Part shown: positions 4,801 to 57,426 of the stretch, in pieces
Layout of the letters: each line of letters begins with the position of its first letter
How positions within the stretch are numbered: the stretch's first letter is position 1
Assembly (NCBI GenBank): GCA_977017645.1
Contig: OZ360246.1
Span: 15,686,001-15,750,000 of the forward strand
DNA: 64,000 nt
Reading direction: 5' to 3'
Origin: Torpedo marmorata
Taxonomy: Eukaryota
The notes under the pieces: model-generated
Seen by the model: the letters and a program-made list of their open reading frames with translations, nothing else
The model's database searches: none
Told to the model about the DNA's origin: nothing
Made by a program: the position numbers and the translations under genes

Positions 4801-6159
4801 GAACCCTTCTCACGGTTCCAGCTAATGTGACTGTAAAATTGATTGGTGGGCACACTCCCAGTAACCATATAAAGTCTACAACAGGGGGAAACATCCACCC
4901 ATGGAATCATTTGGGAGTGTGGTATTATGGCACTTGATCATCTCACCACAGTGACACTTATACCGGAAATGTCTGTTTCCACAAAGGTGGCATACCTTTA
5001 AAATAAGAAGACGCTGGCGTCGTTGGTGAATGAGCAAAAGTTATCGTACAAAAACACTTAAACAAGAGTAAATATCAATTCGTCTCGGTAGTTTGTGGTT
5101 TTGCGTCAATTGACTGCTACACTTACCTACAAAATACCTCTGACTCAGATTCCAAATTAACCAGCTGCCTGGGTGACAGTTTAGCCTGTATTAACTTCAT
5201 GAAAGATAGCACAAGCCCTATCAGGGTTTTTTTCCCACTTTTTTTATAGAATTCTCTCCAGTAATAAAATGCTAAAAGTAAAGAATATAGAAGCTCACCT
5301 GCCATCCTTCCTAATCAGCCGTGCCAGCTGACTCCCTGGCACACAAAAGCAAGCACATGTTAACAATGCAGGTCAGGGCACAGCTACAAAATGCAAGCTC
5401 CGTCTTGCTAAACTGTGGGCCAGTCTGATCCCATTATAAAGAGTAACATCAAAGCAGTAAAGGAAAGTGAACAGACAGTCACCAAGATCCCTAAAGGGCC
5501 AGAAAGCTGCAAGAGCTGAGCTTTTTCAAGAACATTTATTACTTATGAAACCTTCCAAGCTCAGACAAGGTGGATGAAGCCAGACAACCAATTACTGTAT
5601 TAGTGTTTCAAAGGCTCTTTTGCTGTCTTTAGACATCACCATCACACTTTCCTTGTAGCGCATGCAGTTGCTGCAGAGCTTCAGGCCATACTGTTAGTAG
5701 AAGCGTGCCTCATGCAATGTTTTGCAGGCTCTCATGCTGAGCTCCCTTGAATCATTTTCTTTCTGAAGCAACAGCCACAGGCCTAGAAATGGAATTGCAT
5801 AATCTGTTTTTTTTCCCCAGTTTTATGCCATTGAAAAATTGTTTTTTAGTCTGCTGGAGTGAAGTGCAATCATGACCAATTTTGTTCTGTGCCACTTTGG
5901 AAATACAACAGGTCACTTCTAGGTCTGCGTTCTCTTTGTACCTTAATTTCTGGGCCAAGGACGTGGGATGGCGCTGTTCACTGTGTGGCCCACCTTTTGA
6001 AGCTTTACAGGAGAACAGGCATTATATTGGGAGCGCCTTTGAGGGGCAATCTTGGGAGAACGTGGTCTTCCCAGTGCACCTCCCAACTGGGACGCTCTAC
6101 AGGTAATTTAATTACAATACTTCCATTTTTCAGTATTACCAACCACAGCCCCCAGCTGC

Positions 6160-6327
6160 AAAAGTAAAACACGAAAGTCTGCAGACACCGTGGTTGAAGT
6201 AAAAACACAACGCTGGAGAAACTCAGCCGGTCAAACAGTGTACTTTATATAGCAAAGATAAAGATACTTAACCAGCTTTTCAGGCTTGAGCCCTTCATCA
6301 AGGAACTAGCATTGTGTTTTTACCTCT
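6160..6327 (-). mobile_element. Penelope-derived pLTR unit with a degenerate hammerhead motif
   Basis: Minus strand reads CCTTGATGAAGGGCTCAAGCCTGAAAAG; flanked by the direct repeat cccagctgc (6151-6159 / 6328-6336). Confidence 0.7.
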
Positions 6328-6529
6328 CCCAGCTGCCCCTGCCACACTCTGCAATAATGCTGCAGTCCTCCTTGCTCCAAGACCTGACCAAGAAAGAAGC
6401 TCTCTATTCCCATTATCCCCCAGGAAAGTGCCAGATCACTGTCCCCACAATTTCTTCGAAACTCCTGGGCCCCAATCCCCTCCGATCAGCCCTTCCCATA
6501 CCATTCCTTTAACTGCCAATACCCGTCCT

Positions 6530-7045
6530 TTCAGAATCAGAATTATTGTCATGAACATGTCACGAAATTCGTTGTTTTGCAGCAGCATCACAGTGCAAAT
6601 ATTTACATAAACCTCCTTACCAAATAAAATAATTGTGCAAGAAAAAGACAAAGTAAGGCAGTGTCTGTGTTTCATTGTTCATTCAGGAATCTGATGGCGG
6701 AGGGGAAGAAGCTGTCCTTGTGCCGCTGAGTTCTCGTCTTCAGGCTCCTGTACCTTTTTCCCGATGGTAGCAGAGTGAAGAGGGCACGGCCTGGGTGGTG
6801 GGGGTCCTTGAGGATAGAGGTTGCTTTCTTAAGACACCGCCTCTTGTAGATGTCCTCGATGGAGTAAAGCCCTGGATGTCGCAGGCCCAGTTAACAACCC
6901 TCTGGAGTTTTATCCTGTCCTGAGCGTTGGCACCTTCTTACAAGACAGTGATGCAACCGGCTAGAATGCTCTCCACGGTACACCTGTAGAAGTTTCCGAG
7001 ACATACCGAATCCCCTGAAACTCCTTACAAAGTATAGCCGTTGAA
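6530..7045 (-). mobile_element. Rex/Babar LINE 3' fragment, (ATTCTG)n-tail subfamily
   Basis: Close similarity to the 3' end of the 17468-19262 copy; tail cagaatcagaattattgtcatgaaca. Confidence 0.85.
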
Positions 7046-8794: not shown

Positions 8795-9348
8795 GTTCAG
8801 ATTTCAGATTTATTGTCAGAGTACATACATGACATCACATACAACCCTGAGATTCTTTTTCCTGTGGGCGAGGCAGAATTACCACTTATTGGTAGTGCAA
8901 AAAATACTGTACACAATGTACACATGTAAACAAATAAAGAAATGTAAACAGATAACGAATGTAAACAAACTGCAATACAGAGAGAATTTTTTAAAAAATC
9001 AATAAAGAGCAAAATTAAGAATCCTTAAATGAGTCCCTGATTGAGTTTGTTGTTGAGGAGTCTGATGGTGGAGGGGTAGCAGCTGTTCCTGAACCTGGTG
9101 GTGCGAGTCTTGTGGCACCGATACCTCTTTCCTGATGGCAGCAGCGAGAACAGAGCGTGTGCTGGGTGGTGTGGATCTTTGATGATTGCTGCTGCTCTCC
9201 GACGGCAGCGTTCCCTGTAGATGTTCTCAGTAATGGGGAGGGTTTTGCCTGTGATGTCCTGGGCTGCGTCCACTACCTTTTCCAGGGCTTTACGCTCAGG
9301 GGTATTGGTGTCCCCATACCAGACCATGATGCAGCCGGTCAGCACTTT
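8795..9348 (-). mobile_element. Rex/Babar LINE 3' fragment
   Basis: ORF 9025-9345 (GCIMVWYG...PSGKRYR...TIRLLN) plus the family 3' tail. Confidence 0.88.
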
Positions 9349-9665: not shown

Positions 9666-9667
9666 TT

Positions 9668-13200: not shown

Positions 13201-15077
13201 TGGTGATGTGTAGATTATTTTAACATTTTATGCAAGGGTAAAAGTTAAAAAATATTCTACTTCATGATAATTAATATAATTTCAACATTGATTTAAAGTT
13301 ATTTTTGGATTGAAAATAATTTTTGAAGAACTGAAACTGTAAAATTGATTCAAACTCGTTTAATGAACAATTTGTCCTACTGTGGATAAGAAATTGTGGT
13401 TCTCAGCAAAAGCGGTGAGTTTAAATGGTAGAAGTTTTACCGTATAAATATGCTGGTGACGATGAGTTCTGGTTAATTCTTTATATGTGGATGAATATTA
13501 CTAAACTTTCAGTAATGTTCAGTCTCCCTGTTTTTTTTTAATTATTGGTTTTCACATGTATGACCTGTGAAATTGCCAGTGTTAAATATCTTGTGATTCA
13601 ACTTTCAATCTTCCAACCAGTGACATTTCAGAGGTGTAAAATGTCCCTTTTTTTGCATCTTATTCTGTGACAAACTCCTTGATAAGGTGTTATGCAAATT
13701 GGACTCTGGGAAACTCTTTCATTCTTAGCTGATTCTGGCGTCCCTTGAGTTGAGGTTTGAAGGTGATGTAGATGTGGCCCTATCAGGGGATCTGATAGGG
13801 TAGAATTAAAGTACCTATTTGCTGTGGCGGTGCTGATGACGCTGTTCAGAACACAGTGTGCCCTGGAAAGCCCAATCCCAATTTCAAGGAATGAAAGGAG
13901 GAAGCAACTTTTTAACACAAAGGATCATGGAAATGCTGGCTGGGCCATGTCAAATGTTGAACAGGTGATCAAATAGATTATTGTTAGCTAAGGGTATCAA
14001 GGATTGTGGAATAATGCCAGGTAAATGGAGGTTGTCTAAATTCTAATCGTTTGCTGAGAATACTCAAGGGGCTGAATGGCCTCATTCTGTTGCTATATTC
14101 CGATGTCTCTCGTCTTGTTGAGCAATTGCGTTCACAAGGTCATACAGCAAGAGGAAAACTTGCAGTGTTATCAAAGAGAACGTCCCATTTTCTAATCTAA
14201 ATACAGGGACCCAAGTGCCTTCATCCTGACTCAACCCCTCTGTTGCCTTTCCAAGGAGAGAATTCGCAGAACTGAAAAACAAAACCTGCGCTCAAATTGT
14301 TTGCCAGTGCTGTTTATTGTTGCAGAATTAATTTAAATAACAAGCTGACACACTGGGGATTGATACTGCCGTGCAATAAACACAGTGGAGCTAAAATTCC
14401 ATGGCTTGCCCACTCGAACTCCAATGGGAGACTGGGAGATCTCCAGGGAGAAGGTGGAAAGACCATGTTTGAAGCAGGAGATCAATGGGAACCATGCAGA
14501 GTTTCAACCTCTGGATACTTCTGGCGAGGAAAATGTCTGGGTATTCAGAAGGTATCAGAGTACACACAGCAAGTTCCTGCAGACAGTGATTGCAATAAAT
14601 AGCCAGTGTTCTATGTGATCGAGGGATAATTGTTGGTCAAGTTGAAGATGACAGGCTAATTTTTTAGGCGCTGTAATCCTCCAGAAGTTAGACTTCTCCC
14701 TAGCCAGGAATTCTGAAGCCAATTAAAGTGCCTTCAACATTCACTCCATGCATGCTGGCTGGAATTTGTTAACCCTGCACAAATCTGGGGTCAAGTCTGA
14801 GTATTCCCGCAATATGCAGTGTCCTTGGTGAAGCCTTTTTGTAAACGTATCATTGCAAACGTCGTGTCAACTGTCCATCAGCTCTCACCCTGGTTCCTAT
14901 CCGTAATGCATTTTCAAACCAGTTTAATTTTTCTGACTGGGCGTTTGCATGCTTTTAATGGTTTTTGATTTGTGTTCAAAAACCTTTGAGACAACACCAT
15001 GAAGATCAAAACACATCACTGTGCAACAAAAACATCAATCCAGTTCTGGATTTTAATCATTAAATTAACCAAATAAA

Positions 15078-15562
15078 GTGTGTGCAAATTTAAGTTCTTG
15101 GGAGTCACTATCTCAGAGGATCTTCCCTGGACCCAACACACTAATGGCATCGTTAAAGCACGTCAGCACCTCTGGTTCCTCAGGAGTTTGCGGAGGTTTG
15201 GTATGACATCGGAAACCCTGGCAAATTTCTACAGATGTTTGTTGGAAAGTGTGCTGACCGGCTGCATCATGGTCTGGTATAGGGACACCAATATCCCTGA
15301 GGGTAAAGCCCTGCAAAAGGTAGTGGACACAGCCCAGGACATCACAGAAAAAAACCCTCCCCACCATCGAGAACATCTACAGGGAACACTGCCGTCGGAG
15401 AGCAGCAGCAATGATCAAGGATCCACACCACCCAGCACACGCTCTGTTCTCGCTGCTACCATCAGGAAAGAGGTATAGGTGCCACAAGACTCGCACCACC
15501 AGGTTCAGGGACAGCTGCTACCCCTCCACCATCAGAAATTCTCAACAACAAACTCAATCAGG
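15078..15562 (+). mobile_element. Rex/Babar LINE fragment (frameshifted)
   Basis: KFKFLGVTISEDLPW...GCIMVWY...PSGKRYR split across two frames. Confidence 0.88.
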
Positions 15563-16574
15563 AATGCCAGGAAATTATACTTATTTTTTCAAAGGGGCTT
15601 GGCGTTTTTAGACCAGCTGAGTTCCTGAATTAACCGGGATCTGCTTCATTATTTTACTGGCTGCATTGTAATAAACACAGTGCCTATCAATGGCGCTGTT
15701 CTTCCTTGTGATTTTTAAAACTTTGTCCAGATACGAACATGTCATCGCATCAAAGATGACATCAGTGTATAAGCTTCTTGTTTACAGGCATTATAGTGTC
15801 TTGCAGGGCTAACTCCAAATGACAGTGGCGCTTTTAAGCTTGAGTAAGTCAGCTTTTCATTCGTGAAAACTGTGGATTGAACTTTAACTCCGGCAAAATA
15901 ATTCTACAGAGGAATTAAGAATGTTTCAATGTTAATGGAATACTGGGTGTCTGAGAAATCCCGGAGAGGATTATGAGGACTGGATGTGGCAGAGAAAGAG
16001 GGGAGCAATTCAGATAAGAGGAGGGAGAACCCAATGTTGCTTGAAAAGCCGGCATTTTGTCTTATTTTCATCTTGTAAACATGGGACAGTTACTTCTGCT
16101 GAGTAGTTTTTCCTCTAACTCTGAGCCTCGGGTTGGAGAAAGAAAAAGGGTGAGCCACTAACCTTGCAATGTACGGGTCACTGACTGTGCTAGAGTCCCT
16201 TGGTTGTTCCTCCGCACTATAATAATAGCCTTTATCCTGGGTCAGATTTAGCTCGGCGCACTCATACAACAAATCCTTTCATCTGAAAGCATTTTTAGAA
16301 ATGCCACTTACAAAGCAACTCTAAGACAGTGCCTGCCAATGAACTGCTGTCGTGTGGAAATGTAGTGCTCTGGTCTTCTGGGTTTTTAGCTGATGGGACT
16401 TGTTCTGATGAGGTGCTGCTCAAGTGGAGTACTGAGATACGATAAGTGTTTTAATTGTCTGGTGCACAGAGCCCTTTGTTTTCCTGCTTTTCCAGAGCCA
16501 AAGAACAATCCCATCTCAGAGAAATGTGATTGGTTAGTTATCAATTTACCGGTAATTCATTAATAGCAAAGACC

Positions 16575-17467: not shown

Positions 17468-19262
17468 TCAGAATCAGAATTTATTGTCATGAACAAGTCA
17501 TGAAATTCGGTGTTTTGCGGCAGCGTCATAGTGTAAACATTCATATTATAACCATCTTACGACATTACTATAAAAATATATATATAAATAATAGTGCACT
17601 AAAAGTAAGGCAGTGTCTTTGGTTCATTGATTATTCAGGAATCTGATGGCAGCGGGGAAGAAGCTGTCCTTGTGCCGTTGAGTGCTCGTCTTTAGGCTCC
17701 TGTACCTTTTTCCTGATGGTAGCAGAGTGAAGAGGGCATGGCCTGGGTGGTGGGGGTCTTTGAGGATAGAGGCTGCTTTTTTAAGACACCGCCTCATGTA
17801 GATGTCCTCGATGGAGTGAAGTCTGGTGCCTGTGATGTCACAGGCCGAGTTAACAACCCTCTGGAGTTTATTCTTGTCCTGAGAGTTGGCGCCTCCATAC
17901 CAGGCAGTGATGCAACCAGCCAGAATGCTCTCCACGGTACACCTGTAGAAGTTTACGAGAGTCTTCGGTGACATACCGAATCTCCGCAGTCACCTCACAA
18001 AATATAGCCGCTGGCGAGCCTTCTTTGTGATTGCATCAACGTGGAGGCTCCAGGACAGATCCTCGGAGATGTTGACTCCCAGGAATTTGATGTTCTTGAC
18101 CCTCTCCACTACTGAGCCCTCGATGAGGACTGGGTCGTGTTCCCCTGACTTCCTCCTGAAGTCCACAATCATCTCCTTGGTTTTTCTGACGTTGAGCGCA
18201 AGGTTGTTGTCGTTACACCATTCAACGAGCTGATCTATCTCCCTCCTGTACGCTTCCTCATTGCCGTTTGTGATTCTGCCGACAACTGTGGTGTCATCGG
18301 CAAACTTGTAGATGGCATTGGAATTGTGCCTGGCCACACAGTCATGAGTGTATAACGAGCAGAGCAGTGGGCTAAGGACGCATCCTTGGGGTGCTCCTGT
18401 GTTGATAATCAGTGAGGAGGAGACGTTGTTTCCAATTTGAACTGACTGTGGTCTTCCGATGAGAAAGTCAAGGATTCAGTTGTAGAGGGGGATACAGAGG
18501 CCTAGTGTTTGTAGCTTCTTGACCAGCTCTGAGGGAATAATGGTATTGAAGGCCGAGCTGTAGTCGATGAAGAGCAGCCGTATGTATGAATTGCTGTTTT
18601 CGAGGTGATCCAGAGCTGAGTGGAGAGCCAGCGATATTGCATCTGCTGTGGAGAAATTGTGACGATAGGCGAATTGTAGTGGGTCCAGATCTTTGCTTAG
18701 GTATGTGTTAATTCTGGCCATGACCAGCCTCTCAAAGTATTTCATCACAGTAGAAGTTCGTCGTTGAGGCAGCTCACACTACTCTTCTTGGGTACCGGGA
18801 TGATTGATGCTCTTTTGGAGCAGGTGGGAACCTCTGACTGCCGCAATGAGAGGTTGAAAATATCCGTGAACACTCCAGCTAGTTGGTTGGCGCAGATTTT
18901 CAGTACCCTGCCAGGTACACCGTCGGGGCCTGACGCCTTGCGAGGGTTCACCCTCTTGAATGATGTTCTGACGTCGCCCTCAGAGACAGATATCACAGGG
19001 TCCTCAGCCTTTTCAGGGATTCTAGTAGGCACTGTTTTGTTCTTCTTCTCAAAGCGGGCATAGAAGGTGTTCAGCTCATCGGGCAGTGAAGCATCACAGC
19101 CGTCTATAGTGTTCGCCCTCGCTTTGTAGGCTGTAATGGCCTGCACTCCCTGTCATAGCTGGCGTGTATCTGTCTCTGTCTAGCTTCCTCCAGAATTGCC
19201 ACTTCGCTTCAGAGATGGCCTTCCGCAGGTCGTGCCTGCTTCCCTCCAGTTGCTTCCACCCA
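17468..19262 (-). mobile_element. Rex/Babar LINE, 5'-truncated, RT broken into several ORFs
   Basis: RT motifs [32 protein letters not shown] and KFLG in ORFs 18745-19146, 18476-18748, 17990-18337 and 17624-17974; (ATTCTG)n tail. Confidence 0.92.
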
Positions 19263-21104: not shown

Positions 21105-21270
21105 ACTGTCTGTAAGGAGTTTGTACGTTCTCCCCGTGTCTGCATGGGTTTCCTCTGGGTGCTCCGGTTTCCTCTCACCTTTCAAAAGTGTACCAGGGTT
21201 GTAGGTTAATTGGGGTATTTGGGCGGCACAGGCTCGTGGGCGGAAGGGCCTGTATGTCTAAATTTAAAAT
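21105..21270 (+). mobile_element. V-SINE (HE1-like), 5'-truncated
   Basis: V-domain gtttgtacgttctccccgtgtctgcatgggtttcctctgggtgctccggtttcc plus CR1-like tail. Confidence 0.8.
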
Positions 21271-21544
21271 ATAAAAATACACATTGAAACACTGAGAAAT
21301 TAAAAGCTTTTTTTAAAATTTGTTTTTAATTTATCTTTTTGCTCTTAATCTGCAGACCTGGAATCTCCATTCAGAAGAATGGGACCTTTGTTCCCATTGG
21401 CATAGAATCAGGGAGGTGGACTCCTCAGTGGAATGCTGGGAGTTGCAATGAGGCAGATGTGCAGTCTGGGGCTCCCCGTGGAGTCTAGGGTCCCTGCAGC
21501 AGGATCACATGGGTCTGGGAGTGGCTGGACATCAGCGATGGCCT

Positions 21545-21760
21545 GAAACACAAAAGTCTGCAGTCGCTGTGATTGTAGTAAAAACCCAGAAATTCTGGAG
21601 AAACTCAGCCGGTCTCGCAGCGTCCACAGGAGGCTCCTGAGTCAGTGTAGCAAATGCTGATGAAAGATCGTAGACTTGACACACTCACTCTCTATCTATG
21701 TCCAAGAATACCATCTAATCTGCTGAGTGTTTCCAGCATTTTCTGCTTTTATTTCACAAT
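21545..21760. mobile_element. Two Penelope pLTR-derived fragments in opposite orientation
   Basis: aaagtctgcagtcgctgtgattgtag... followed by an older, opposite-strand ...ctgctgagtgtttccagcattttctg. Confidence 0.55.
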
Positions 21761-22634: not shown

Positions 22635-22830
22635 CTTCGAATCCGGTGCTGTCCGTAAGGAGTTTGTACGTTCTCCCCGTGTCTGCGTGGGTTTTCTTCA
22701 GGTACACCGGTTTCCTTCCACTCTTCAAAATGTACTGGCGGTATTTGGGGTCAATTGGGGTATTTGGGCAGCACGGGCTCGTGGGCTGGAAGGGCCTGTT
22801 ACCATGCTGTATGTCTAAATTTAAAAAAAT
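22635..22830 (+). mobile_element. V-SINE (HE1-like)
   Basis: B-box remnant ttcgaatcc, V-domain, and tail gggcctgttaccatgctgtatgtctaaattt. Confidence 0.82.
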
Positions 22831-23593: not shown

Positions 23594-23830
23594 GGGTGGC
23601 ACAGTTAGCGCAATGCTGTTATAGCGCCAGCGATCGGGACCTGGGTTCGAATCCCGCACTGTCTGTAAGCAGTTTATACGTTCTCCCCGTGTCTGCGTGG
23701 ATTTTCCCCGGGGGGCTCCGGTTTCCTCCCACCATTCAAAACGTACTGGGGGTTGTAGATTAATTGGGTGTAATTGGGCGGCACGGGCTCGTGGGCCGAA
23801 AGGGCCTGATAGCATGCTGTATGTATGTAT
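23594..23830 (+). mobile_element. V-SINE (HE1-like), near full length
   Basis: tRNA-like head with B box ggttcgaatccc (23644-23655), V-domain and CR1-like tail. Confidence 0.85.
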
Positions 23831-25524: not shown

Positions 25525-26850
25525 GTAAGTTTAATTCAATGAGCAGACTGCTTCCAGACTTCTGGCAGCACACCACTTGGGTGGGAGGGGATGGTTTGCA
25601 TAGAACACCACAGCACAGAAACGGCCCTTCAGCCCATCTAGTCTGTGCCGAACTGATATTCTGCCTAGTCCCATTGACCTGCACCTGGACCATAGCCCTC
25701 CATACCCCTCCCATCCTGTCCAGATATTTTAAATGCTTCACTGACAGTCTTCTTCCCCAGATAGACCAACCCGAGATGCTATTCTGACCAGTCTTTGGGT
25801 TCAAACTTCCCCCACACCCGCCCATTCCATGGGAAAGTATTTTGGCGCATTAGCTTGGAGTGTGGGGATGGATAACAACCGTGGCTTATTTCCTTTTGTT
25901 GTACATTGACGGTCTGTCATCGTCACCCCTGAGGCTTGGTTTACTGCCAGCTTGAAGAATCTGAATTAAAGAGGCTCCTTCAACATAATAATCTCTTTTA
26001 CATTTGTTACCAGCAAATTATACCTATCAATAATAGCTAATAGTGCTCTGCTGATCCCGTAATGGTATGAGAATGCCATATGTACCCTTACTGAGATCTG
26101 CTAGTAATCGTTTTTTGCTGTGGAAGGGTCGTTAAATGGCGGAAGATGAAGTAACTTTAATGTAGTCAATGTTCCGTCATCCCAGATAGGGTTTAAGTTG
26201 TACCTATGTCCGCCATGATTGGAAAGGTGGAACAGATTTGATGGCCTGAATGGCCTAATTCTGCTCCGACGTCTTATGGTACCTGCGGGACCAGAGGTAA
26301 ACTCTTCAACAATCTCAGAGGGCAGCTTATGGTTAAAGTTCACCCGCCCCGGTCCAGTGAGCCGATGAGCCCACAGAGCATTTGAAAGTCACATCACGGG
26401 ATGATAACGGACACCCACCACTGTTTTCCCTGCTGGTGTAGGACTCGTGAGGCCAAGCAAATTGGTACAATTAACAAAAGAACAGGTAGAAATGACAGTG
26501 TTTTCTGTGTGTCCGAATACCAATATCCTGCAGCTTAACATCAAAGTCAAAACCTCTCAGTCAGAGGCCACTTGACAACCGATCTGGACGTGGGCTCATT
26601 CTAGGTCTCCACTTCCAGATTTGTGCTGCATTAGCAGATAAACACAGTAGATTAGAGAGAGGAACGACATCCATAGCGCTCACTTTAGTTTGCCATCCAT
26701 TGACTAAGTGCACGAAGTTGTGCGGAGTCTGGACTGGCCTTCAGCTGTAATTCCTCACTTTCCAAATGTAAAGCGACCCCAAGGAAAAAAGCAAGAAGGC
26801 AAGATTGTCCATGTACGTGCAGTAACGTCAATGCTTTTTCCTTCTTCCAG

Positions 26851-27149
26851 TCACATCATCATTGTCTTCACTTTCTTCTCCTTCCTTCACTTCATCTGGC
26901 TCATCAGCAAAGGATTTGAGCTCACCCGGATTCCACGTTGCATCCATTGGGACCCTCGAGACTTCAGGCTACACAGACGCACACAATGGTGGATTGGAAG
27001 TGGAGCTAGAACAGTTGAGACAGGCCTTGGACATTGGAATTGACAGCAAGGAGGCCAAGGAGAAATTCTTGCACGAGATCATAAAGATGCGAGTGAAGCA
27101 AGAGGAAAAGCTGAATGCAGCTCTACAAGCCAAGCGCAGTTTGCAACAG
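26851..27149 (+). CDS. SKI: SKI coding exon 5 ([16 protein letters not shown]...[31 protein letters not shown])
   Basis: Acceptor cttcttccag at 26850, donor CAG|gtgaga; 299 nt, phase 1/0. Ser-rich tract and start of the coiled coil, closely matching SKI. Confidence 0.96.
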
Positions 27150-27224
27150 GTGAGAAAGAAATCTGCCCAAATTCAGCAGAAAAAAATTGTATTCAATGAC
27201 TGAAAAAATGGATGGAATTTGCAA

Positions 27225-27698
27225 TAAAAACACAGAAATGCTGGAGGAACACAGCAGGTCTCGCAGCATCCATAGGAGGTAAAGATATATTACCAACGTT
27301 TCGGGCCTACACCCTTCTTCAAGGTATGAGCAAAATGTAGACAGGCACCTGAATTAAAAGGCTGGGGGAGAAGGGAAGGGCAGGGGGGAGGAGCACAGAC
27401 AAAAAGTGATAATTGGACATGGATAAGAGAGCAGGAGAGGAAAGGTGAGAATTGATCGGGGTGGGTGGGGATGGCTCTGTGAATGCAGAGCTGGAGGAAA
27501 GGAGACAGGGAAAAGAAAGAGAGAAACAGAGCTAAAGGAGAAATAGGGATAGGGGGGGGGACTAATGGATACCGGGACAAGTCGATGGTAATGCCATCCG
27601 GTTGGAGGGTGCCCAGACGGATTATAAGATGTTGTTTCTCCAATTTGTGGGTGGTCTCAGTCTGGCAGTGCACGAGACCGTGGACTTGAAATATGACC
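27225..27698 (-). mobile_element. Penelope-like element 3' fragment (GIY-YIG C-terminus + pLTR with hammerhead motif)
   Basis: Peptide HGLVHCQTETTHKLEKQHLIIRLGTLQPDGI; minus strand ATACCTTGAAGAAGGGTGTAGGCCCGAAACGTTGGTA; imperfect 13-bp flanking repeat (27212-27224 / 27699-27711). Confidence 0.8.
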
Positions 27699-28019
27699 AT
27701 GAAATTTGTAAACTTGGTGCAGCTACATTAATTGTCTTTAGGCAGATTAACAACTGACATCAAGAACCAATATGTCGAGTGCAGATGTCCTGATGTAAAT
27801 ATTGATTGTATGTTTTCACATACCATCATGGAGGTTTGGTTTATGGGAGTTCTAAATTTGTAGCCCTCGTGATTGATTAGCAAGGATTGCATTTCTATGA
27901 ACAAGAGACAAGGCTGCGTTAATTATCAGAGTTCTTTCAAACATGGTTTAGCTGAAACGTGAAATGGCAGCAGAAGACTAGAGGTTTGTACCTCAGTACT
28001 TGTGACATTAATGGGTTAA

Positions 28020-28139
28020 ACAAGAAAATCTGCAGACGCTGTGATTGTAGTTTACACAAAAATGCTGCAGAAACTCAGCAGGTCACGCAGCATTCAATGC
28101 TGCGTGACCTGCTGAGTTTCTCCAGCATTTTTGTGAACG
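28020..28139. mobile_element. Fold-back Penelope pLTR mini-insertion
   Basis: 40-bp inverted arms within 28055-28135; direct repeat ttaatgggttaa at 28008-28019 / 28140-28151. Confidence 0.8.
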
Positions 28140-29743: not shown

Positions 29744-29922
29744 ACAATGCTCACAAGGATGATGGAAGCAGATTAAGCAACAACTTTCATAAGGGAAATG
29801 TATAAATTCTCAAAAAGAAAAAAAATATGTATAAGGAGCTTTAATGTAGGGGTAGTGGATTGGAACAAATTGGATAGCTCTTTCACAGAGCTCAAGCAAC
29901 AGTAAATGTAACCTTTCTGTCT

Positions 29923-31751: not shown

Positions 31752-31997
<246 letters not shown>

Positions 31998-33819: not shown

Positions 33820-33911
33820 CTGATGAAGGGCTCAGGCCCGAAGCGGTGGTTATCCTTTACTTCCTGTGGATGCTGCGTGACCTGCTGAGTTTCTCCAGCA
33901 CATTTACGTAT
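33820..33911 (+). mobile_element. Minimal Penelope pLTR/hammerhead-motif insertion
   Basis: ctgatgaagggctcaggcccgaagc; flanking tggcctgacct / tgtcctgacct (33811-33821 / 33912-33922). Confidence 0.7.
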
Positions 33912-34151
33912 TGTCCTGACCTTCCTGCACCCAAATAGATTCAAAAGGTAATAGGAACACCCAAGTTTATTCAGTAGGTGAGACACTACAGGTGGCGTTA
34001 GTGATTGTCTGTTTCTACTGTGATATTTTCACAGGGTTTTAGTTTGTGAAACTATATGCTGTAAAATTAAAAGTACAATTAAATGGCCCTGTGTGCTCTA
34101 GGTGTAAATCTTGTGTAGAAACCACATCTATGTGAAACTTTTTAGAGTAAC

Positions 34152-34390
34152 CAGTAATGTAGCGGTTAGTGCAACATTATTACAGCGCCAGCAACCCAGG
34201 TTTGAATCTGCTGCTGTCTGTAAGGAGTTTTTACGTTCTCACCATGACCCGCGTGGGTTTCCTTCGGGTAGTCTGGTTTCCTCCCAAGTTTCAAAGACGT
34301 AAGGGGTTGGTAGGTTGATTGGTCACATGGGTGCAATTGGGCGGCACGGGCTCATGGGCCGGAAGGATCTGTTACCGTGCTGTATTTCTG
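34152..34390 (+). mobile_element. V-SINE (HE1-like), diverged
   Basis: Head gtagcggttagtgcaac, V-domain and tail. Confidence 0.75.
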
Positions 34391-36600: not shown

Positions 36601-36674
36601 TAAAAATTAAATATTAAAATAAACTAGGTCACTGTGATGACCACATCGGGCTTATAAAAATTCTCTTGTCAGTT

Positions 36675-36816
36675 CCTCATACCTTCAGGAAGGGCTCAGG
36701 CCCGAAACGTCAGTTATATATCTTTACCTCCTATGGACGCTGCGAGGCCTGCTGAGTTCCTGCAGCATTTCTGTGTTTTTACTACAATCACAGCATCTAT
36801 AGACTTTCCTGTTTCA
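36675..36816 (+). mobile_element. Penelope pLTR unit with a degenerate hammerhead motif
   Basis: ataccttcaggaagggctcaggcccgaaacgtc; flanking ctcttgtcagtt / ctcttatcaatt (2 mismatches). Confidence 0.72.
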
Positions 36817-36864
36817 CTCTTATCAATTAACATGTACAACTTTTAAAGCCCTACTCATAAAATT

Positions 36865-37086: not shown

Positions 37087-37178
37087 GATGTACCTCTACC
37101 ATTGTTTTTCCATATGTACAAGAGACCTTCACCCTGCAGTGCATTCTTTACCAACACAATAGCCCTTGGCCTGTTTGA

Positions 37179-37409
<231 letters not shown>

Positions 37410-37415
37410 AGAAAC

Positions 37416-42674: not shown

Positions 42675-43184
42675 ATGTCACAAGATCCCAAAGGTCTTCA
42701 CAGATACTGAAGTGCTTTCGCTGCCAGCAGTAGTATTTTACAGAAGTACCACCCCAGTTTACATGCTGCAGTGGGAATTGAACCTACAAGTTTGGTCTCG
42801 GAGTTAAGAATGGGTGTACGCCTAGCTGTTCCTTTGGGCTTCTGAGCAGTTTTGCCTCGGCAGGAACAATGGGAACAAACAGTGGTGAATTTTTCTGGCC
42901 GTCTTTTCATCTTCCCTCTCAGTCCTGATGCAGGGTCTCGAGCCGAAACATCGCCATAAACTCTTGCCTCCACGGATGCTGCTGGATGTGCTGAGATCTT
43001 AAAGCAATCTATCATATCTTTGTGTAGTGCCATTTAAGCCAGAAAATTGCAACGACTGGCAAGGAAACCATCGCGCTCAAGTTCCATGTAAAATAGGTTT
43101 AATATGCAGCTTCAGACAAAATTGCAGCCTATATTCTGCTGTTGGGTCGTTATTTTGTGTACAACCTCAGAGGCCACTGAACCT

Positions 43185-44706: not shown

Positions 44707-45088
44707 GGCACCAACCAGATGGCATTAACATCAACTTCTCCTGTTTCATTTAAACCCCCTCCCCCCTTCTTCCCCCGTCGCCTTTCCCCATCTCTGCCTC
44801 TCTCTCTCTCTCTCTTCCCTTTTCCCTCTGTCTCCTTTCACAGAGCCAAAATCAATTCTACCTCTCCTCTTGTCATATCCAATTAGCACCTTTTGTTGGT
44901 CTGGACTCATCCCCCAGCCAGTCTAGAGTCTTTATTCTGACTGTTCTTTGCTTATACCTTGAAGAAGGGCTCAGGCCCGAAATGTCGGTAACCTCCTATG
45001 GACAATGCGAGACCGGCTGAGTTCCTCCAGCATTTCTGTGTGTTTTTACTACAATCACAGCGTCTGCAGACTTTCGTGTTTCACTCCA
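44707..45088 (+). mobile_element. Penelope-like 3' fragment with hammerhead motif
   Basis: caaccagatggcattaacatc (QPDGINI) then tataccttgaagaagggctcaggcccgaaatgtcggta. Confidence 0.78.
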
Positions 45089-48908: not shown

Positions 48909-49705
48909 TGGAAAAGAATTCCCTATTAAAATCTTCCTTAGATTTATCGGTCAATATCCCTCACACTGAAATCGCCCAGCAATAGCACCAGTCTGCTCTG
49001 TCAACCCCCTTCTTCAACGGTGTTTATCAATTATACTGCGACAGACAGAAGGAAGCCTCTTGGAGTGGGTGGGATTGTTGGAGGTGGGAGCTCACATGAT
49101 AGAGCTCCAGGAATATGTCCTGCGAGAGTTGACCCAGAGCAGCCAATCAGCCTGGGACTGTTTGCCCAGTAATAAATGCAAACTTTGCAAGGAAGGTTTT
49201 TTTTTTCCCTTTTGTTTGTCCTGGTACTGGTCTCTTTGTCTCTGTCCCCCATCTGGGAGGGGATGATACGCAGTTAACCTCTCAACCGGTGCCAGCAGCC
49301 ACCGCGATCCGCTGCTGATTAATTCCGGAGTTCCTGCTTTATTGAAGCAGCTCACAGTTGTTACCAAAGAAGAAAAGAGGAGCCTGTTTTACATGTGGCA
49401 ACCTCCTTGCGGTCCTTGTGTTTATGTTAACTCGACTAATGTCCCCAGGCTTTCTGGGACTTGCTTTGGGCACTGCATGTGTCTCAGCTATGGAGATGGT
49501 TATCCCGATGTAGTTAATGAGTTGATTTATTTTGCATTCCATGGAAAATGTATTCTTTGTCAGTTTGGCTTGTATCAGAGGGTGTCCAATCCTACTCAAG
49601 AGACTAGGAAGCAAACTGTGGTCTACCGTCTGGCGCCAGACTGCAGCGGTGTTGGAGGTGCCCGTCCGTCAGATCAGAGCTGCCTTACGGTGTCTCAGGC
49701 AGATA

Positions 49706-50684
49706 CCTTAGCCCCATGCTCTACTGGCTTTACACCTATGACTGTGTGGCTCGGTACGACAACAACACCATCTACAAATTCGTTGACAATACCAAGATAG
49801 TGGGTTGTATAAAGGAAGGAGATGAGTCAACATGCAGGAGGGAGATTGAAAACTTGGCTGAATGGTGCACCAACAACAATCTCGCACTCAATGACACCAA
49901 AACCAAGGAGCTGATTGTTGACTTCAGGAAGGGAAAACCAGAGGTGTATGATCCAGTGATCATTGGGGGATCAGAGGTGGAGAGGGTGAGCAAATTTAAG
50001 TTCTTGGGAGTCACTATCTCGGAGGATCTTTCCTGGACCCAACACACTAATGGCATCATGAAGAAAGCAAGTCAGCGCCTCTACTTCTTCAGTAGTTTGT
50101 GGAGGTTTGGTATGACATCAGAAACCCTGGCAAATTTCTACAGATGTGTGGTGGAAAGTGTGCCGACCGGCTGCATCACGTTCTGGTATGGAGACACCAA
50201 TAAAGCCCTGCAAAAGATAGTGGACACAGCCCAGGACATCACAGGTAAAACCCTTCCCACCATCAAGAACGTCTACAGAGAATGCTGCTATTGGAGAGCA
50301 GCAGCAATCATCAAGGATCCACGCCACCCAGCACACGCTCTGTTCTCACTGCTACCATCAGGAAAGAGGTATAGGTGCCACAAGATTCGCACCACCAGTT
50401 TCAGGAACAGCTGCTACCCCTCCACCATCAGACTCCTCAACAACAAACTCAATCAGAGACTCATTTAAGGACTCTTACTTTTGCACTTTATTGTTTAGTT
50501 TCATCTCTGTATTGCAGTTTGTATATATTCGTTATCTGTTTACATGTACTGGATACGCTGTGTACAGTTTTTTTTTGCGTTACCAATAAGTGGTCATTCT
50601 CCCTCGCCCACAGGAAAAAGAAGCTCAGGGTTGTATGTGATGTCATGTATGTACTCTGACAATAAATCTGAAATCTGAATCTGA
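49706..50684 (+). mobile_element. Rex/Babar LINE 3' portion (250-aa open RT C-terminus)
   Basis: LYTYDC..IYKFVDNT (catalytic FADD mutated), KFLG, PSGKRYR; tail aataaatctgaaatctgaatctga. Confidence 0.9.
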
Positions 50685-50971: not shown

Positions 50972-51547
50972 AACATCGGAGAGACTGGACGCAGACTGGG
51001 AGATCGCTTTGTTGAGCACCTCGGCTCTGTCCGCCGCAATAGCGTGGATCTCCCAGTGGCCACCCATTTCAATTCTCCATCCCATTCCCTTGCTGACATG
51101 TCTGTCCATGGTCTCATGCACTGCCAGACTGAGACCACCTGCAAATTGGAGGAACAACACCTCATCTTCTGACTGGGCACCCTCCAACCAGATGGCATTA
51201 ACATCAACTTCTCTGGCTTTCTTTAAAACCCCCCCCCACCCTCACTTCTTCCCCCGTCACCTTCCCCCCAGCTCTGTCTGTCTCCCTTTTACCTGTCTCC
51301 TTTCACACAAACATAATCAATTCTCACCTCTCCCCTTATCACATCCAATTAACATCTTTTGTTGGTCTGGACTCATCCCCCAGCCAGCACTCTCTGTATT
51401 CTGAGATTTCCGGTTTTTTGCTCATTCTGCTTATTCTTTGAAGTAGGGCTCAGGCACCTATGGACCCTGAAAGACCGGCTGAGTTCCTCCAGCATTTCGG
51501 TGTGTTTTTTCTACAACCACAGCATCTGCAGACTTTCGTGTTTCACT
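50972..51547 (+). mobile_element. Penelope-like 3' fragment (GIY-YIG + pLTR, hammerhead partly deleted)
   Basis: IGETGRRLGDRFVEHL...VATHFNS; nearly identical to 56364-56986. Confidence 0.82.
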
Positions 51548-52073
51548 AAGGACGGCAGGGGCACTGACTCTTTGAACTTGTTAGCACAGAACGAAGGGCC
51601 AAGCGGCCTCCATCTGTGATGTATGGCTCTGTGGCTTCCAGGAGCACCAGCAGGTGGGAGGCTGAACCATGCCCTGCAGTTTCCCAGGAAATGCTTCGGG
51701 GGAAAATCCTGCCCTCAGCCGCAGCCCGAATCCTTACTGCCCACGTCCCTCTGCTCTCAGCACCAGATCCCAATGCAGAACTCTTCCTCCTGGCTCCTTG
51801 GGTCCAAGCCAGCTCAGCCAACTGGCAAACATTCCCTCTGCTGCCTGCGTTGAGCAATAACTTAACACAAGAAGCCAGGAGAGATGACGCCGAGGAGAAT
51901 CCGAGGGCTAGCGTCGTGATACAGACAGCGACACTGAGCAACCCTGGTGGTCCGAGGAAGCTCAAGAGATTTTATACCGGGTGTGATGTGGATTTGGAGC
52001 GTCTGGCGACTCTGAGGCTTTCCACAAACTCTCACTTCCTTATCACTTGCTGACCAGCCCTGCACTAAATACA

Positions 52074-53200
52074 GGAGTAAAACACGAAAGTCTGCAGACA
52101 CCGTGGTTGAAGTAAAAACACAATGCTGGAGAAGCTCAGCAGGTCAAACAGTGTACAGGTTGTACCTCTCTAATCCGGCGCTCTGTGGTCTGGCAACTCC
52201 CGTGGTCCGGCAACTCCCGTGGTCCGGCACGTTTTGAATCTGCCGCCATTAGTTTGTGGATCTGCCACCAGGGTGGCGCTGTTAGCAGCGCTAATGCACC
52301 AAAATCTGTTTACACTGCAGCCGAGTGTTTTGGTGATACAGTCCTGTTAATTTCTTATATTCAGCTGTATTTTAGCCCTTCAGGATGTCATCCAAGAGAC
52401 CAAGAGGTGCAGAAAATGGTGCTAGTGCTAATAAGCGTTCCCTTAGGGGTCAATTTCTGTTTTCCGGCATTTTCTGTGGTCCGGCAATGGCCAGGTCCCA
52501 ACGTCGCCGGAGTAAAGAGGTACAACCTGTACTTTATATAACAAAGATAAAGATACATAACCAATGTTTCGGGCTTGAGCCCTTCATCAAGCTATGAGCA
52601 AAATGTAGGCACTTGTGAATTTGTGGGAGTCATCTACTGCATCTGATGCTCCCGTTGTGGCCTTCTCTAGATCGGAGAGACTTGGCGCAGACTGGGAGAT
52701 CGCTTCGCTGAGCACCTTCGCTCTGTCCGCATCAATGACAGGGATCTCTCAGTGTCCAACCATTTCAATTCTGCGCCCCACTCTCATGATATCTGTCCAT
52801 GGCCTCATACACTGCCAAACCAAGGCCACCCGTAAATTGGAAGAGTAACACCTAATATTCCGTCTGGGCACTCTCCAACTGGATGGCATTAACATCAACT
52901 TCTTCGGTTTCTGCTAGAGCCCATTGTCCCTCCCTTCCCATTCCCTCTGTTTCCGTTTCTCCAGCTCTCCACCCCCTTCCCTCTCCATTCACAGAGCCCT
53001 CCCTCCTCCCCCTGTTTGCTGGTGTGCCCTCCCTCCCTTATCCACCTATCACCTCCTGCCTGTGGGACCGTGCTCCTCCCCCCCTAGAATTTTATTCAGG
53101 CGACTGCCTACATTTTGCTCATAGCTTGATGAAGGGCTCAAGCCCGAAACATTGGTTATGTATCTTTATCTTTGCTACATAAAGTACACTGTTTGACCTG
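52074..53200 (+). mobile_element. Penelope-like insertion: inverted pLTR, GIY-YIG remnant, direct pLTR
   Basis: Ends are reverse complements, with hammerhead motifs at about 52560-52595 (-) and 53120-53160 (+); perfect 14-bp direct repeat ctgcactaaataca (52060-52073 / 53201-53214). Confidence 0.85.
52156..52529. mobile_element. Tc1/mariner-pogo (Tigger-like) MITE nested in the Penelope pLTR
   Basis: 25-bp TIRs caggttgtacctctctaatccggcg / cgccggagtaaagaggtacaacctg (2 mismatches); TA duplication on both sides. Confidence 0.88.
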
Positions 53201-53324
53201 CTGCACTAAATACATTCTGGTGGTAATAACTCAAGCAGGCTGACACTGCTAAAACACTATCAATATCAGGAAGCTCAGAGGGGAGGTGCGAGATTTTATC
53301 CGCAGAAAGGGGGGGCATTGCTCT

Positions 53325-55830
53325 TCAAAGTTCAAAGTTCATATTAATTGTCAAGAGTACATACATGACATCACATACAACCCTGAGATTCCTTTTCCTG
53401 CGGGCCAGGCAGAATTTCTACTTATCAGTAGTGTCAACTGTACTCGACTTCCGACCTACGCGAGTTACGTCCACCCGCACATATGACTGAATTTTTTTTT
53501 TTTTAAATACTCGTCTGCGTATTAAAGGTTCATTTGTTGAAAATGTTTTTGAAAAATTGCTTTAAGACCTCGTTAAGACATACGCGGTAGGGTGAATCCG
53601 AATTACGACTAATCCAAGTTACGACCAATCCTTCGGTCCCAATTACGGTCGTAAGTCGAGGACTACCTGTACTCAAGAAAAAGATACACACGCAAAAGAG
53701 AGGAATGTAAACAAAGAAAGAAATGTAAACAAACTGACTGTGCAAATACAGAAAAATATAAATATTTAGTAATAAATAATGCGTAAAGGAAGAGTCCTTA
53801 AATGAGTCTCTGAGTGTTGTTTAGATGTCTGATGGTAGAGGGGTAGCAAGTGTTCCTGAACTTGGTGGTCTGTGTCTTGTGTCATTTATACCGTTTTCCA
53901 AATGGCAGCAGCGAGAACAGAGCATGTCCTGGGTGGTGTGGATCATTGATGATTGCTGCGGCTCTCTGACAGCAGCGTTCCACGTAGATTTTTTCGATGG
54001 TGGGGAGAGTTTTGCCTGTGATGTACTGGGCTGTGTCCACTACCTTTTGCAGGGCATTCAGAGGTATTGGTGCCCCCAAACCAGGCTGTGATGCAGCCGG
54101 TCAATCTCTCTCCTGTTTGCTGACTCATTGCCCCTTTGTATACAGCCCACTACTGTGGTATAATTAGCAAATGCGTAAATGGTGCGAGCCACGAAGTCAT
54201 AGGTGTAAAGCGAGGAGAGCAGGGGGCTAAGAACACAGCCCTGTGGTCTCCAGTGCTGATGGAGATTGTGGAAGAGATGTTCTTAACAATCGTGATTGTG
54301 GTCTGGAGGTGAGGAAATCCAGGATCCATTTACACAGTGGGGTATTGAGGCCCAAGTCTTGGAGTTTGCTGATCAGTATTGAGGGGATGATGGTGTTGAA
54401 TGCCGAACTGTATTCAATAAAGAGCATCCTGATGTATGCATCTTTGCTGTCCAGGTGTTCCAGGATTTAGTGTAGAGCCAGTGAGACGGCATCTGATGTC
54501 AACCTGTTACTGGGGTGGGCAAATTGGAACTGATCCATGTCACCGCTCAGACAGGAGCTGATATGCTTCAACACCAGCCTCTCAAAACGCTTCATCACTG
54601 TGGATGTGAGTGCCACTGGTCGGTAGTCATTTAGGCAGGTTACCACACTCTTCTTGGACATAGGTACGATTGAGGCTTGTTTGAAACAGGTGGATACCAT
54701 GCCCTGTCGGAGTGAGATGTTGAAGATATCCATGTAAACATGGGCTAGTTGATCAGCACAGGTTTTCAGTACTTGGCTGAGTACTCCGTCCGGACAGGAT
54801 GCTCTCCTTCGATTCACTCTCCTGAAGGCAGCCCGCACGTCATCCTCGGATACTGGCAGTGGAGGATCATCAGGGAACACGGGGGTACACAATGGTTCTT
54901 CCTTGTACTGGTGGTCAAATCGGGTGCAGAATCGTTGAGCTCATCTGGGAGTGAAGCTTTGCTGTCTCCTATTGCACCAGATTAGGTTTTGTAGCAGGTT
55001 ATGTCATTTAGGCCCTGCCACACTTGTCAGGTATTCTTTGTTGTTTCCATTAGTGTCCAGAATCTCCACTTTGCCTGGGAGATTGCTTTTTGTCTGTCCT
55101 ACCTGATCCTTGTGTAGTGTTCTGGATTTCTGGACTTAAATGCCTGTGATCTGGCTCTCAGCAGGTTCCGGATTTCATTGTTCATCCAGGGCTTCCAGTT
55201 GGGGAAAACCCTAAATGATTTGGTGGGGACACATGTGTCCACAGCTGTTTTGATAAAGTCCGTAACGACTCATCAGACGTAATCATTCAGATCCTCAGCT
55301 GAGTTCTTGAACACTGCCTAATCCACTGACTCGAGGCAGTCCTGTAACCATTCTTCAGCCTCTCTCGACCACATTCTGGCTGTCCAGATCTCTGCCTGCA
55401 GGCAGAAGGAGAATCGCCAGGTGATCCAACTTGCCAAAATACGGTCTTGGGGAAAAACAATAGGCCTTCCTTATCTTGTTATAGCAGTGATCGAATGTGC
55501 TGGAACCTCTGGTACAGCAGGTTATGTGTTGGTGTTAATTGGGCAGGGTTTTCTTTAGACAGGCCTGGTTAAAGTCACCGGCTATGATTTGTGGTGTGTC
55601 GGGGTAGGCGTCTTGTTTACTGCACATCATGCAGCTCCGCAAGTGCCTGTTTGTAATCAGGATCGGGAGGATATAACCTTCAGTGGGAATCACTAATGAG
55701 AACTCTCAGAGTAGATAGAAGGGTCTGCATTTGATCGATACTTACTCTAAGGCAGTGGAAAACAGGAGGTCAACATAACCCCAACATCCATGCACCAGCC
55801 GGTATTAACTAAAAAGCACACACTATGCCA
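53325..55830 (-). mobile_element. Long degenerate Rex/Babar LINE (endonuclease + RT remnants)
   Basis: CLNDYRPVALTSTVMK and [12 protein letters not shown]; AGDFN- and DHCY-like APE remnants near 55480-55590; (TTTGAAC)n-type tail. Confidence 0.85.
53443..53669. mobile_element. Tigger-like MITE with truncated left TIR, nested in the LINE tail
   Basis: Right end ggtcgtaagtcgaggactacctg+TA; left end TA+ctcgacttccgacc lacks the outer TIR bases. Confidence 0.7.
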
Positions 55831-56363
55831 GAATCCAAGTTCCGGTCCAGTTTGTGAATGGTCTTAAGTTGGTCCCACTCTGTGCGCGGTTAAACAATTC
55901 TGACCTCATGTATGTGAAATATGACCTTGAACCCCATGTTTGGGGGATGGTTACTGGGCTTGTTGGGATGGGATGGGTCCTTGTATGGGTCATTTGCAGA
56001 GCAGAACCCAGGAGTTTGTGGAAATGGATAATGTTGTGTCATACCCAGATCTTGTGCTCGAACTGGCATCTCTTTGGACCGCTTTTCACCAGAGCGTTTA
56101 GGAACAGAAACAGTGTCCTGGGAGGGTGGACAGCTTCCTCCCAATTCAACTCAAGGGTCAGACACAATAGCTCACTGGTCACCAGGGAAACCACATTTGG
56201 CCATGAGCTCAGGCAAATTCATCAAGGGTGCACCTCCATTAAAAAAATAAACTCATCTCTTTCCTTCGTTTTAGGATCAGTTGTTTGGGAATTTCTCCTG
56301 CCGACCTTTCCTCTCCCTGTTTCCAGCTGCTTTCCTCTTTGCACAAGCCTTTTCCTCCCAATC

Positions 56364-56986
56364 TTACTGCATCCGGTGCTCCCGTTGTGGTCTCCTCTAC
56401 ATCGGAGAGACTGGACGCAGACTGGGATATCGCTTTGTTGAGCACCTCGGCTCTGTCCGCCGCAATAGCGTGGATCTCCCAGTGGCCACCCATTTCAATT
56501 CCCCGTGCCATTCCCTTGCTGACATGTCTTTCCACGGTCTCATGCACTGCCAGACTGAGACCACCCGTAAATTGGAGGAACAACACCTCATCTTCTGACT
56601 GGGCACCCTCCAACCCGATGCCATTAATATCGACTTCTCTGGTGTTTGTTAAACCCCCCCTCACTTCTTCCCAGTCGCCTTCCCCCAGCTCTGTCTCTCC
56701 CTTTTCCCTGTCTCCTTTTGCACAGACATAATCAATTCTCACCTCACCCCCTTATCCAATTAACACCTTTTGTTGGTCTGGATTCCTCCCCCAGCCAGCA
56801 TTGTCTGTATTCTGAGATTTCCTGTTTTTTGCTCATTCTGCTTATTCTTTGAAGAAGGGTTCAGGCCCGAAACATCGGCAATATATCTTTGTCTCCTCTG
56901 GACGCTGAAAGACCGGCTGAGTTCCTTCAGCATTTCAGTGTGTTTTTAATATAATCACAGCGTCTGCAGACTTTCGTGTTTCACTT
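56364..56986 (+). mobile_element. Penelope-like 3' fragment with GIY-YIG endonuclease and hammerhead motif
   Basis: YCIRCSRCGLLYIGETGRRLGYRFVEHL...EEQHLIF*; ttgaagaagggttcaggcccgaaacatcgg; direct repeat ctcccaatc (56355-56363 / 56987-56995). Confidence 0.88.
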
Positions 56987-57426
56987 CTCCCAATCCCTTG
57001 TCTGTTCCTACTCCCTTCAACCTCTCCCCCATCATTATTGAGCCCACTGGATAGCGCGCCCACCTGTGTTTACGACCAGGCGTGTTCAGCGATCTGTATA
57101 ACCCAGCAGACGCGCGTGTGACTGTGTATGCAGGAGAGTGTTTGTGGGCACACACGAGCGTGTCTGCTTGAGGAGCGTGAGCAGGCATGTAAAGTGTTGG
57201 ATGAGTTTTCATTCACTCACCCGTGAGGTTATCAGAGACTTGGCCAGGATTTACACCCATCCCTAATTTTTGGGATTTAGCACCACTCCCCCATTTATTC
57301 ACTGACTGGTCATTTAGCTCTTTTCTAGTTGCTCTGCAGGATCTTTCTGTGCATTAATGCCCCTCTCCCAAATTGCAACTACGTCTGCACTCAGAAAGGA
57401 TCTTCACGAGCTATGAAGGGTTAGAG

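Follow-up and report, generated by a model that had tools for sequence, protein, structure and literature searches.

Results

Hammerhead motifs and Penelope-like element ends in the window

The window, a stretch of 64,000 nucleotides of Torpedo marmorata genomic DNA, contains dispersed copies of the end of a Penelope-like element (PLE), some with and some without a hammerhead-type motif. Pattern matching found this motif 6 times in its strict and 11 times in its fuzzy form, as against no strict match and a mean of 0.23 fuzzy matches (maximum 2) in 30 dinucleotide-resampled windows, and the motif copies described in an earlier, sequence-only reading of the window are thereby confirmed. An Rfam scan of the window returned no hammerhead model at E ≤ 1, its 5 matches all being miRNA models below threshold. 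Core positions are numbered with U4 as position 0, the predicted cut lying between +26 and +27, and past the core the repeat continues for about 97 or 136 nt on the downstream side. The following features were delineated (TSD, target site duplication; all cores listed, except the decayed one at 33246, are among the 11 fuzzy matches).

6163-6303, reverse strand: short PLE end with hammerhead motif, tailed 3' end and 5' end at about -3; core 6278-6301; 95.8% identity to a long genomic copy
6308-6323, forward strand: inverted head of 16 nt, the tailless arm of the 6280 insertion; 9-bp TSD 6151-6159 / 6328-6336
21544-21633, reverse strand: tailed PLE end cut off at about +42, without hammerhead
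27219-27685, reverse strand: tailless PLE end with hammerhead motif (core 27299-27322), extending into the GIY-YIG coding region
28015-28135: head-to-head insertion without hammerhead; tailed arm 28015-28091 (reverse strand), tailless arm 28097-28135 (forward strand); TSD of at least 12 bp
29923-30025, forward strand: short tailless PLE end, core 29931; 14-bp TSD 29909-29922 / 30026-30039
30924-31334: single insertion with two arms and a 13-bp TSD; inverted tailed head 30926-31205 (reverse strand), locally duplicated with a period of 118 nt; tailless arm 31207-31334 (forward strand), core 31230
33240-33370, forward strand: old degenerate tailed PLE end, decayed core 33246
33818-33913, forward strand: short tailless PLE end of the subfamily with the canonical C3 core, core 33820; 8-bp exact TSD core overlapping the first element bases
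36673-36818, forward strand: short tailed PLE end, mutated core 36684; 12-bp TSD with 2 mismatches
42920-43000, forward strand: old degenerate PLE end, C3-type core 42925
44711-45085, forward strand: tailed PLE end reaching the ORF end, core 44959; small deletion past the predicted cleavage site
50973-51547, forward strand: PLE end with tail and GIY-YIG remnant; part of the hammerhead deleted near 51440
52076-53200: single insertion with a 14-bp TSD (52060-52073 / 53201-53214); inverted tailed head 52076-52611 (reverse strand), core 52567-52590, interrupted by unrelated DNA at 52157-52527; body 52635-53200 (forward strand) with a GIY-YIG remnant and a core at 53126
56361-56985, forward strand: tailed PLE end with GIY-YIG coding remnant 56365-56595, core 56849; 9-bp TSD

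TSDs were detected at 6280, 28015, 29930, 31230, 33820, 36685, 52076-53200 and 56850, which supports the view that the copies are retro-insertions; a search around 21544, 27300, 44960, 51430, 42925 and 33246 found none. The copies at 27300, 44960, 53125 and 56850 extend upstream into the GIY-YIG ORF. Among the copies singled out as degenerate, those at 36685 and 42925 proved to be PLE ends, whereas at 10285 there is a degenerate core and the downstream element is absent. The motifs at 52570 (reverse strand) and 53125 (forward strand), formerly counted separately, are the two arms of one insertion, and inverted heads are present on the 6280 and 31230 insertions as well. Note that the same PLE end occurs without a hammerhead at 21544-21633 and 28015-28135, both of which a motif-based reading overlooks.

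The parent element

A GIY-YIG frame adjoins the 56850 core directly upstream. The earlier reading was right in assigning the motif, as a minimal type I hammerhead, to the terminal repeat of a GIY-YIG PLE. Pfam GIY-YIG scores were 16.2 and 20.6 bits, both under the curated cut-off of 22.6, with a best E of 6e-4; for the 56850 frame E was 0.013, below the cut-off, and a PDB sequence search with the GIY-YIG piece gave 0 matches. The same piece yielded 197,196 first-look candidates across the 6.2-Gb genome, and a sample of 100 random 10-kb tiles contained 76 motifs, which scales up to about 470,000, or roughly 0.5 million, genome-wide.

Twelve genomic loci with long frames were analysed. At one of them, L278, a related frame of 403 amino acids contains YIDD, a Cys-rich linker of the form C-x4-C-x2-C and GIY-YIG (YIGET..H motif); the linker between reverse transcriptase (RT) and endonuclease (EN) recurs at other loci. 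A near full-length insertion (L277/L289) consists of an inverted tailless head, a 5' pLTR, the ORF, and a 3' pLTR with tail; the tail of the 5' pLTR runs on into the ORF start, the ORF is broken by a LINE-like insert, and the flanking direct repeat measures about 11-14 bp. The family thus has the make-up of an EN+ PLE: RT followed by a C-terminal GIY-YIG endonuclease in one ORF, a pLTR, a tail of 30-40 bp, an inverted 5'-truncated copy, and variable 5' truncation with TSDs. Sources are cited here by PMC or bioRxiv number. A Cys-rich linker between RT and EN marks Neptune or Nematis PLEs (PMC8557442), and the vertebrate PLE clades are Neptune and Poseidon (bioRxiv 10.64898/2026.07.22.740005). 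The parent element therefore likely belongs to the Neptune clade, an assignment made from the linker motif shared with Nematis and not from a tree.

3' ends, tails and inverted heads

The 3' ends of the copies are fixed and form two groups, at about +90 to +104 and at +130 to +138 (about +97 and +136, some 38 nt apart). Breaks at 56985 and 56946-56948, the same two 3' ends, also occur in public assembled contigs aligned over 56365-56990, whose source runs are not recorded as RNA. These ends agree with the known PLE tail, to which two RT start sites correspond in the anole element (PMC11167929). A genome search with the 81-nt tail piece, in which very common words are skipped, gave no match.

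One tailed and one tailless arm were found in 36 of the 39 head-to-head insertions, and in 12 of 12 if the tiles are considered alone, from which we infer that each target strand uses a different start site for priming. Arms of equal length are not supported as a further rule (10 of 39 within 12 nt versus 7.1 after shuffling, p 0.12). A simple snap-back of the cDNA at stem I is ruled out where the shorter arm is tailed and the longer one tailless (L085, C60right 90170 and L229). TSDs of at least 11 bp flank 33 of 195 single-arm copies, versus 3 of 194 mismatched flanks; for arms with heads the raw count, to which no null belongs, is 39 of 48.

Short and long copies

The sequence-only reading had proposed that the short copies may be a separate non-autonomous family, retrozyme- or SINE-like, that might form one clade with fixed ends. 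Five window copies served as queries, and for each query 30 of some 40 scored genomic matches were used. Copies with a 5' end over 40 nt upstream of the core accounted for 23 (29930), 12 (33820), 11 (6280), 19 (36685) and 27 (56850) of the 30 nearest, the query's own copy included. An unbiased scan of 1.2 Mb of tiles, anchored at +72 to +84, gave 108 young copies, young meaning an identity of 85% or more to a long reference. Their starts fall downstream of 0, inside or after the core, in 40 cases, at 0 to -9 in 11, at -10 to -40 in 15 and upstream of -40 in 42, of which 29 lie beyond -200. Among the collected copies 5' ends are spread continuously from +69 to beyond -690.

Trees were built for 194 copies (80 short, 114 long; those ending at -40 to -120 were left out) on about 97 columns and are poorly resolved. 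The labels short and long change 48 times on the tree, versus 53.2 ± 3.0 in within-subfamily shuffles (p 0.059), and the nearest neighbour is a long copy for 45 of the 80 short ones. In D6, the largest subfamily, a single clade of short copies is rejected (p-AU 0.002) and short copies cluster weakly (net distance p 0.003; 17 label changes versus 20.9 shuffled, with 29 of 500 shuffles as low). This weak clustering, together with one clade of 7 that contains only short-labelled copies, indicates that source elements differ in their output of short copies.

Among 113 motifs in 1.264 Mb a single, degenerate same-strand neighbour lay within 600 nt, hence no tandem arrays were found. Given interleaving trees, long relatives and no tandems, the copies lack the features of a retrozyme, namely tandem hammerhead units bounded by the cleavage site, and those of a separate SINE-like lineage with a fixed 5' end of its own, apart from its autonomous partner. 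Scattered 5' ends and interleaving with long copies, which the earlier reading itself had named as the outcome that would count against it, are largely what we find.

An excess of 5' ends just before the core

The 5'-end distribution nevertheless deviates from plain random decay. The end hazard was estimated from an unbiased set of 162 young copies, of which tiles gave 108 and the far flanks of search loci 54. Per 100 nt it was 0.54 at +60 to +46, 0.65 at +45 to +31, 0.70 at +30 to +24, 0.26 at +23 to +11, 0.91 at +10 to +1, 2.09 at 0 to -9, 0.49 at -10 to -19, 1.02 at -20 to -39 and 0.18-0.38 further up. The earlier observation that short copies start within about 10 bp of the core is borne out by the bin named beforehand, 0 to -9, with a hazard of 2.09 versus 0.64 over the rest of +60 to -39 (3.2-fold, 20 versus 64 events, p 3e-5); over +60 to -39 as a whole the hazard is 2.6-fold that over -40 to -190. 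A boundary-calling artefact was rejected as the origin of this peak, with 27 called versus 29 simulated ends at 0 to -9 in 330 trials and no miscall among 36 long copies.

Exact-match starts peak at -4/-5, with 35 of 50 within -7 to -3, and 10 of the 20 copies ending at 0 to -9 carry an inverted head upstream. As 20 of the 104 copies that reach position 0 stop at 0 to -9, this is a preference and not a fixed end. The excess at -1 to -8, within the 5' strand of stem I, most likely reflects templates that often end, or synthesis that often stops, at the 5' border of the hammerhead fold. At the GUC/GUU cleavage site genomic 5' ends are not in excess: the hazard at +24 to +30 (6 events) does not exceed that at +60 to +31. 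A G at the 5' junction, as a cap would leave it, was seen in 16 of 50 cases, no clear excess, and there is thus no cap signature. The available parts of the literature on PLE insertions contain no description of an excess of 5' ends at stem I, and searches on Neptune PLEs in elasmobranchs and on PLE hammerhead truncation in sharks found none.

Structure of the hammerhead

Stem II comprises 4 bp and stem I 5-6 bp around a bulged +29, and with the palindromic stem III region they make up a minimal type I hammerhead. Compensatory changes are seen at -4/+30, U-A in subfamily A56 (38 of 41) and A-U in B29 (27 of 30) and D6 (44 of 53), and at -7/+33, U-A in A56 and C-G in D6 (46 of 53). The pairing is weaker in subfamily E36, where 24 of 46 copies have A-A at -4/+30. 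In minimum free energy folds of monomers and dimers stem II formed and the hammerhead junction did not.

In the core, U3 stands opposite G8 in 61 of 67 young tile cores in place of a canonical Watson-Crick 3-8 pair, and C3 is confined to subfamily C33 and older copies. As C33 has C3 and one U fewer, the U3 change can alternatively be taken for the insertion of one U. Decay of the individual copies is roughly neutral. The core was expected to show excess conservation among copies, and its non-CpG divergence of 2.9% versus 4.4% downstream (p 0.04) might be taken for this, yet the loop is lower still (1.3%) and the copies were picked by similarity, so that the excess was not accepted.

A U3-G8 combination slows cleavage in a hammerhead core, and the U3-G8 core described here is predicted to cut poorly. 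A literature search by U3-G8 spellings gave no match. In known hammerheads position 3 pairs with position 8, as C3-G8 or, by natural covariation, as U3-A8 (PMC3088659, PMC4209133), and a halophile variant with U3 and G8 has been published (PMC7151607). Core mutants of the anole PLE left insertion in vitro unaffected (PMC11167929), and it is likely that self-cleavage does not define the templates.

Discussion

We consider the repeats, with a probability of roughly 0.85, to be 5'-truncated insertions of autonomous PLE subfamilies, generated by target-primed synthesis from two RT starts that terminates early and ends preferentially at the hammerhead's 5' edge. Their source is very probably a set of several related subfamilies of a PLE with RT and GIY-YIG and, in its 3' terminal repeat, a minimal type I hammerhead motif. 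On the model of the anole PLE in vitro, the PLE protein would cut both target strands in a staggered manner, and each target 3' end would prime reverse transcription at one of the two internal starts about 38 nt apart. Reverse transcription would mostly stop early, and the cDNA would then be joined to the opposite end of the target or, head-to-head, to another cDNA.

That short units might instead be amplified from short templates by the PLE protein in trans, as a retrozyme- or SINE-like family, is suggested by the excess of 5' ends ahead of the core, by the weak enrichment of short copies in part of D6 and by the TSDs that flank short copies (at least 11 bp in 14 of 52). We regard this as largely refuted and very improbable, as long copies are among the nearest relatives in 5 of 5 query sets, most short copies lie nearest to a long one, the one-clade test fails and arrays are missing; moreover the unit starts 4-7 nt before the core and ends 70-110 nt past the cut site, which is not a monomer running from cleavage to cleavage. 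Hardly better are the prospects of a model in which self-cleavage at +27 yields the template 5' ends in vivo. The stems have been kept across subfamilies with compensatory changes, and two head-to-head junctions (L085, C60right 90171) can be read as an arm ending at +27 with a 3-nt overlap, but stem I microhomology also accounts for such overlaps, the hazard does not rise at the cut site, and the young cores have predominantly U3 opposite G8.

A further possibility, tentative at best, refines the truncation reading without setting up a separate family. The short copies might be a built-in second product for which RT starts at internal sites in the 5' leader, that is, the 5' pLTR and its tail in a transcript beginning just before the hammerhead, and runs to the RNA 5' end. 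The end excess with its two-level hazard and the narrow range of exact-match starts would fit, as would an initiator-like pattern, YYANWYY, kept in 5 of 5 subfamilies with its A at -6 (-5 in C33). The tail runs into the ORF in the full-length copy, and the anole element initiates internally near the ORF start (PMC11167929). On the other hand, the starts peak at -4/-5 rather than -6 and are spread over some 8 nt, G is not in excess before the start, the initiator-like match is a degenerate pattern that overlaps stem I, and the single 5' pLTR examined is without the core. One kind of RNA could then give two products, long copies primed in the 3' tail and leader-primed copies of about 100-140 nt that end at the hammerhead edge, with the hammerhead in a structural or binding role and not as a cutter, a reading that is less likely than not. 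As the most successful subfamilies have lost the canonical core and kept the stems, the hammerhead would be a structural boundary or binding element. If the two-product reading were true, hundreds of thousands of copies would map the RNA 5' end and both RT starts in vivo.

Truncation of autonomous PLEs, the reading we prefer, places the family among those of a known kind, as dispersed minimal hammerheads that stem from truncated PLEs were already published in 2014. Dispersed single motifs in metazoan genomes were then described as 'probably related to truncated PLEs' (Cervera and De la Pena 2014, PMC4209133), and those of metazoan PLE pLTRs share with the present ones the type I fold, the extra base ahead of stem II, a palindromic ACGU replacing stem III, the location in a terminal repeat behind the GIY-YIG ORF and the prevalence of dispersed single motifs from truncated elements. 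Unlike in that account, stem II here has 4 bp and the dominant core is U3-G8 or a one-U insertion, not C3-G8 or U3-A8. Insertions of EN+ PLEs show 5' truncation, an inverted copy and a tail of 30-40 bp at one end (PMC8557442), and our copies are the same in kind as those of Neptune and Nematis in truncation, inverted 5' copy, tail, TSDs and Cys-rich linker (PMC8557442, PMC3846280).

The anole PLE, Poseidon PAc of Anolis carolinensis, has two RT start sites, both strands are primed, and hammerhead cleavage is unneeded in vitro (PMC11167929). In PAc, as here, two RT starts bound a tail downstream of the hammerhead and the tail is continuous with the ORF start region, cleavage being apparently dispensable there; PAc, however, belongs to another clade and has a C3-G8 core that cleaves with help from the protein (PMC11167929), whereas the present element is known from sequence. 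Animal non-LTR retrozymes resemble it in their type I hammerhead, short noncoding units and kinship to PLE pLTRs, and are tandem repeats with monomers running from cleavage site to cleavage site and circular RNA (PMC7229834; bioRxiv 10.64898/2026.07.22.740005). The units described here differ in being single or head-to-head, in not being bounded by the cut site and in grading into coding copies.

At about 0.5 million by extrapolation, the copy number compares with thousands in the published account of PLE hammerheads (PMC4209133), and the family is a very large natural data set that bears on the purpose of the PLE hammerhead and on the way in which PLE insertions reach completion. The rule of one tailed arm, the excess of ends at stem I, the absence of an end peak at the cut site and the U3/G8 core of the dominant subfamilies all provide direct predictions for the in vitro PLE system.

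Structural variation at the hammerhead and in an inverted head

With position 0 set at U4 of the hammerhead core and negative values upstream, subfamily D6 of the Penelope-like elements (PLEs) shows a further, weaker cluster of 5' ends at -28 to -36, comprising 7 of the 36 copies from random genome tiles that reach 0. This cluster coincides with a GC-rich stretch, and part of it is a perfect palindromic junction at the genomic locus C60right (83137/83138).

In a single near full-length PLE insertion, spanning the genomic loci L277 and L289, the 5' terminal repeat (L289 ~2455-2480, G000:C2, upstream of L277) has lost its hammerhead core, roughly positions -2 to +26, and picks up again at the predicted cut site; the deletion in this one case is compatible with short microhomology. 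Small internal deletions beside or within the hammerhead are found in two PLE copies, at window 44985 and 51440. One inverted second arm, or head, is repeated locally, as two complete units plus part of another, all within one TSD:

30926-31205, minus strand: inverted tailed head of a PLE insertion, 118-nt period

Other repeats and host gene frames

The window further contains:

1291-1874, 6650-6869, 9048-9291, 15077-15605, 17602-19152, 49608-50675, 53815-54940, 57895-58376, 59950-60387: numerous AP-endonuclease-type LINE reverse transcriptase fragments
21106-21248, 22649-22816, 23659-23826, 34214-34389, 36911, 42513, 48730, 59054, 61703: second SINE-like dispersed family
57415-57553: small element whose terminal inverted repeats start CAGTGGTTCTCAAC
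26826-27203, 37129-37300: exon-like host-gene frames

We take the LINE fragments to be Rex1/L2-like, the SINE-like family to be V-SINE/HE1-like and the small element to resemble a hAT-type MITE; the terminal-inverted-repeat element is the source of a spurious mir-203 match in the Rfam scan. The frame at 26826-27203 resembles the coiled-coil region of Ski/Sno-family proteins. Because of the two exon-like frames, the majority of the window's copies may be intronic. Outside the window, RNase H and integrase frames resembling an LTR retrotransposon adjoin a PLE copy at another genomic locus (L279 1-1636).
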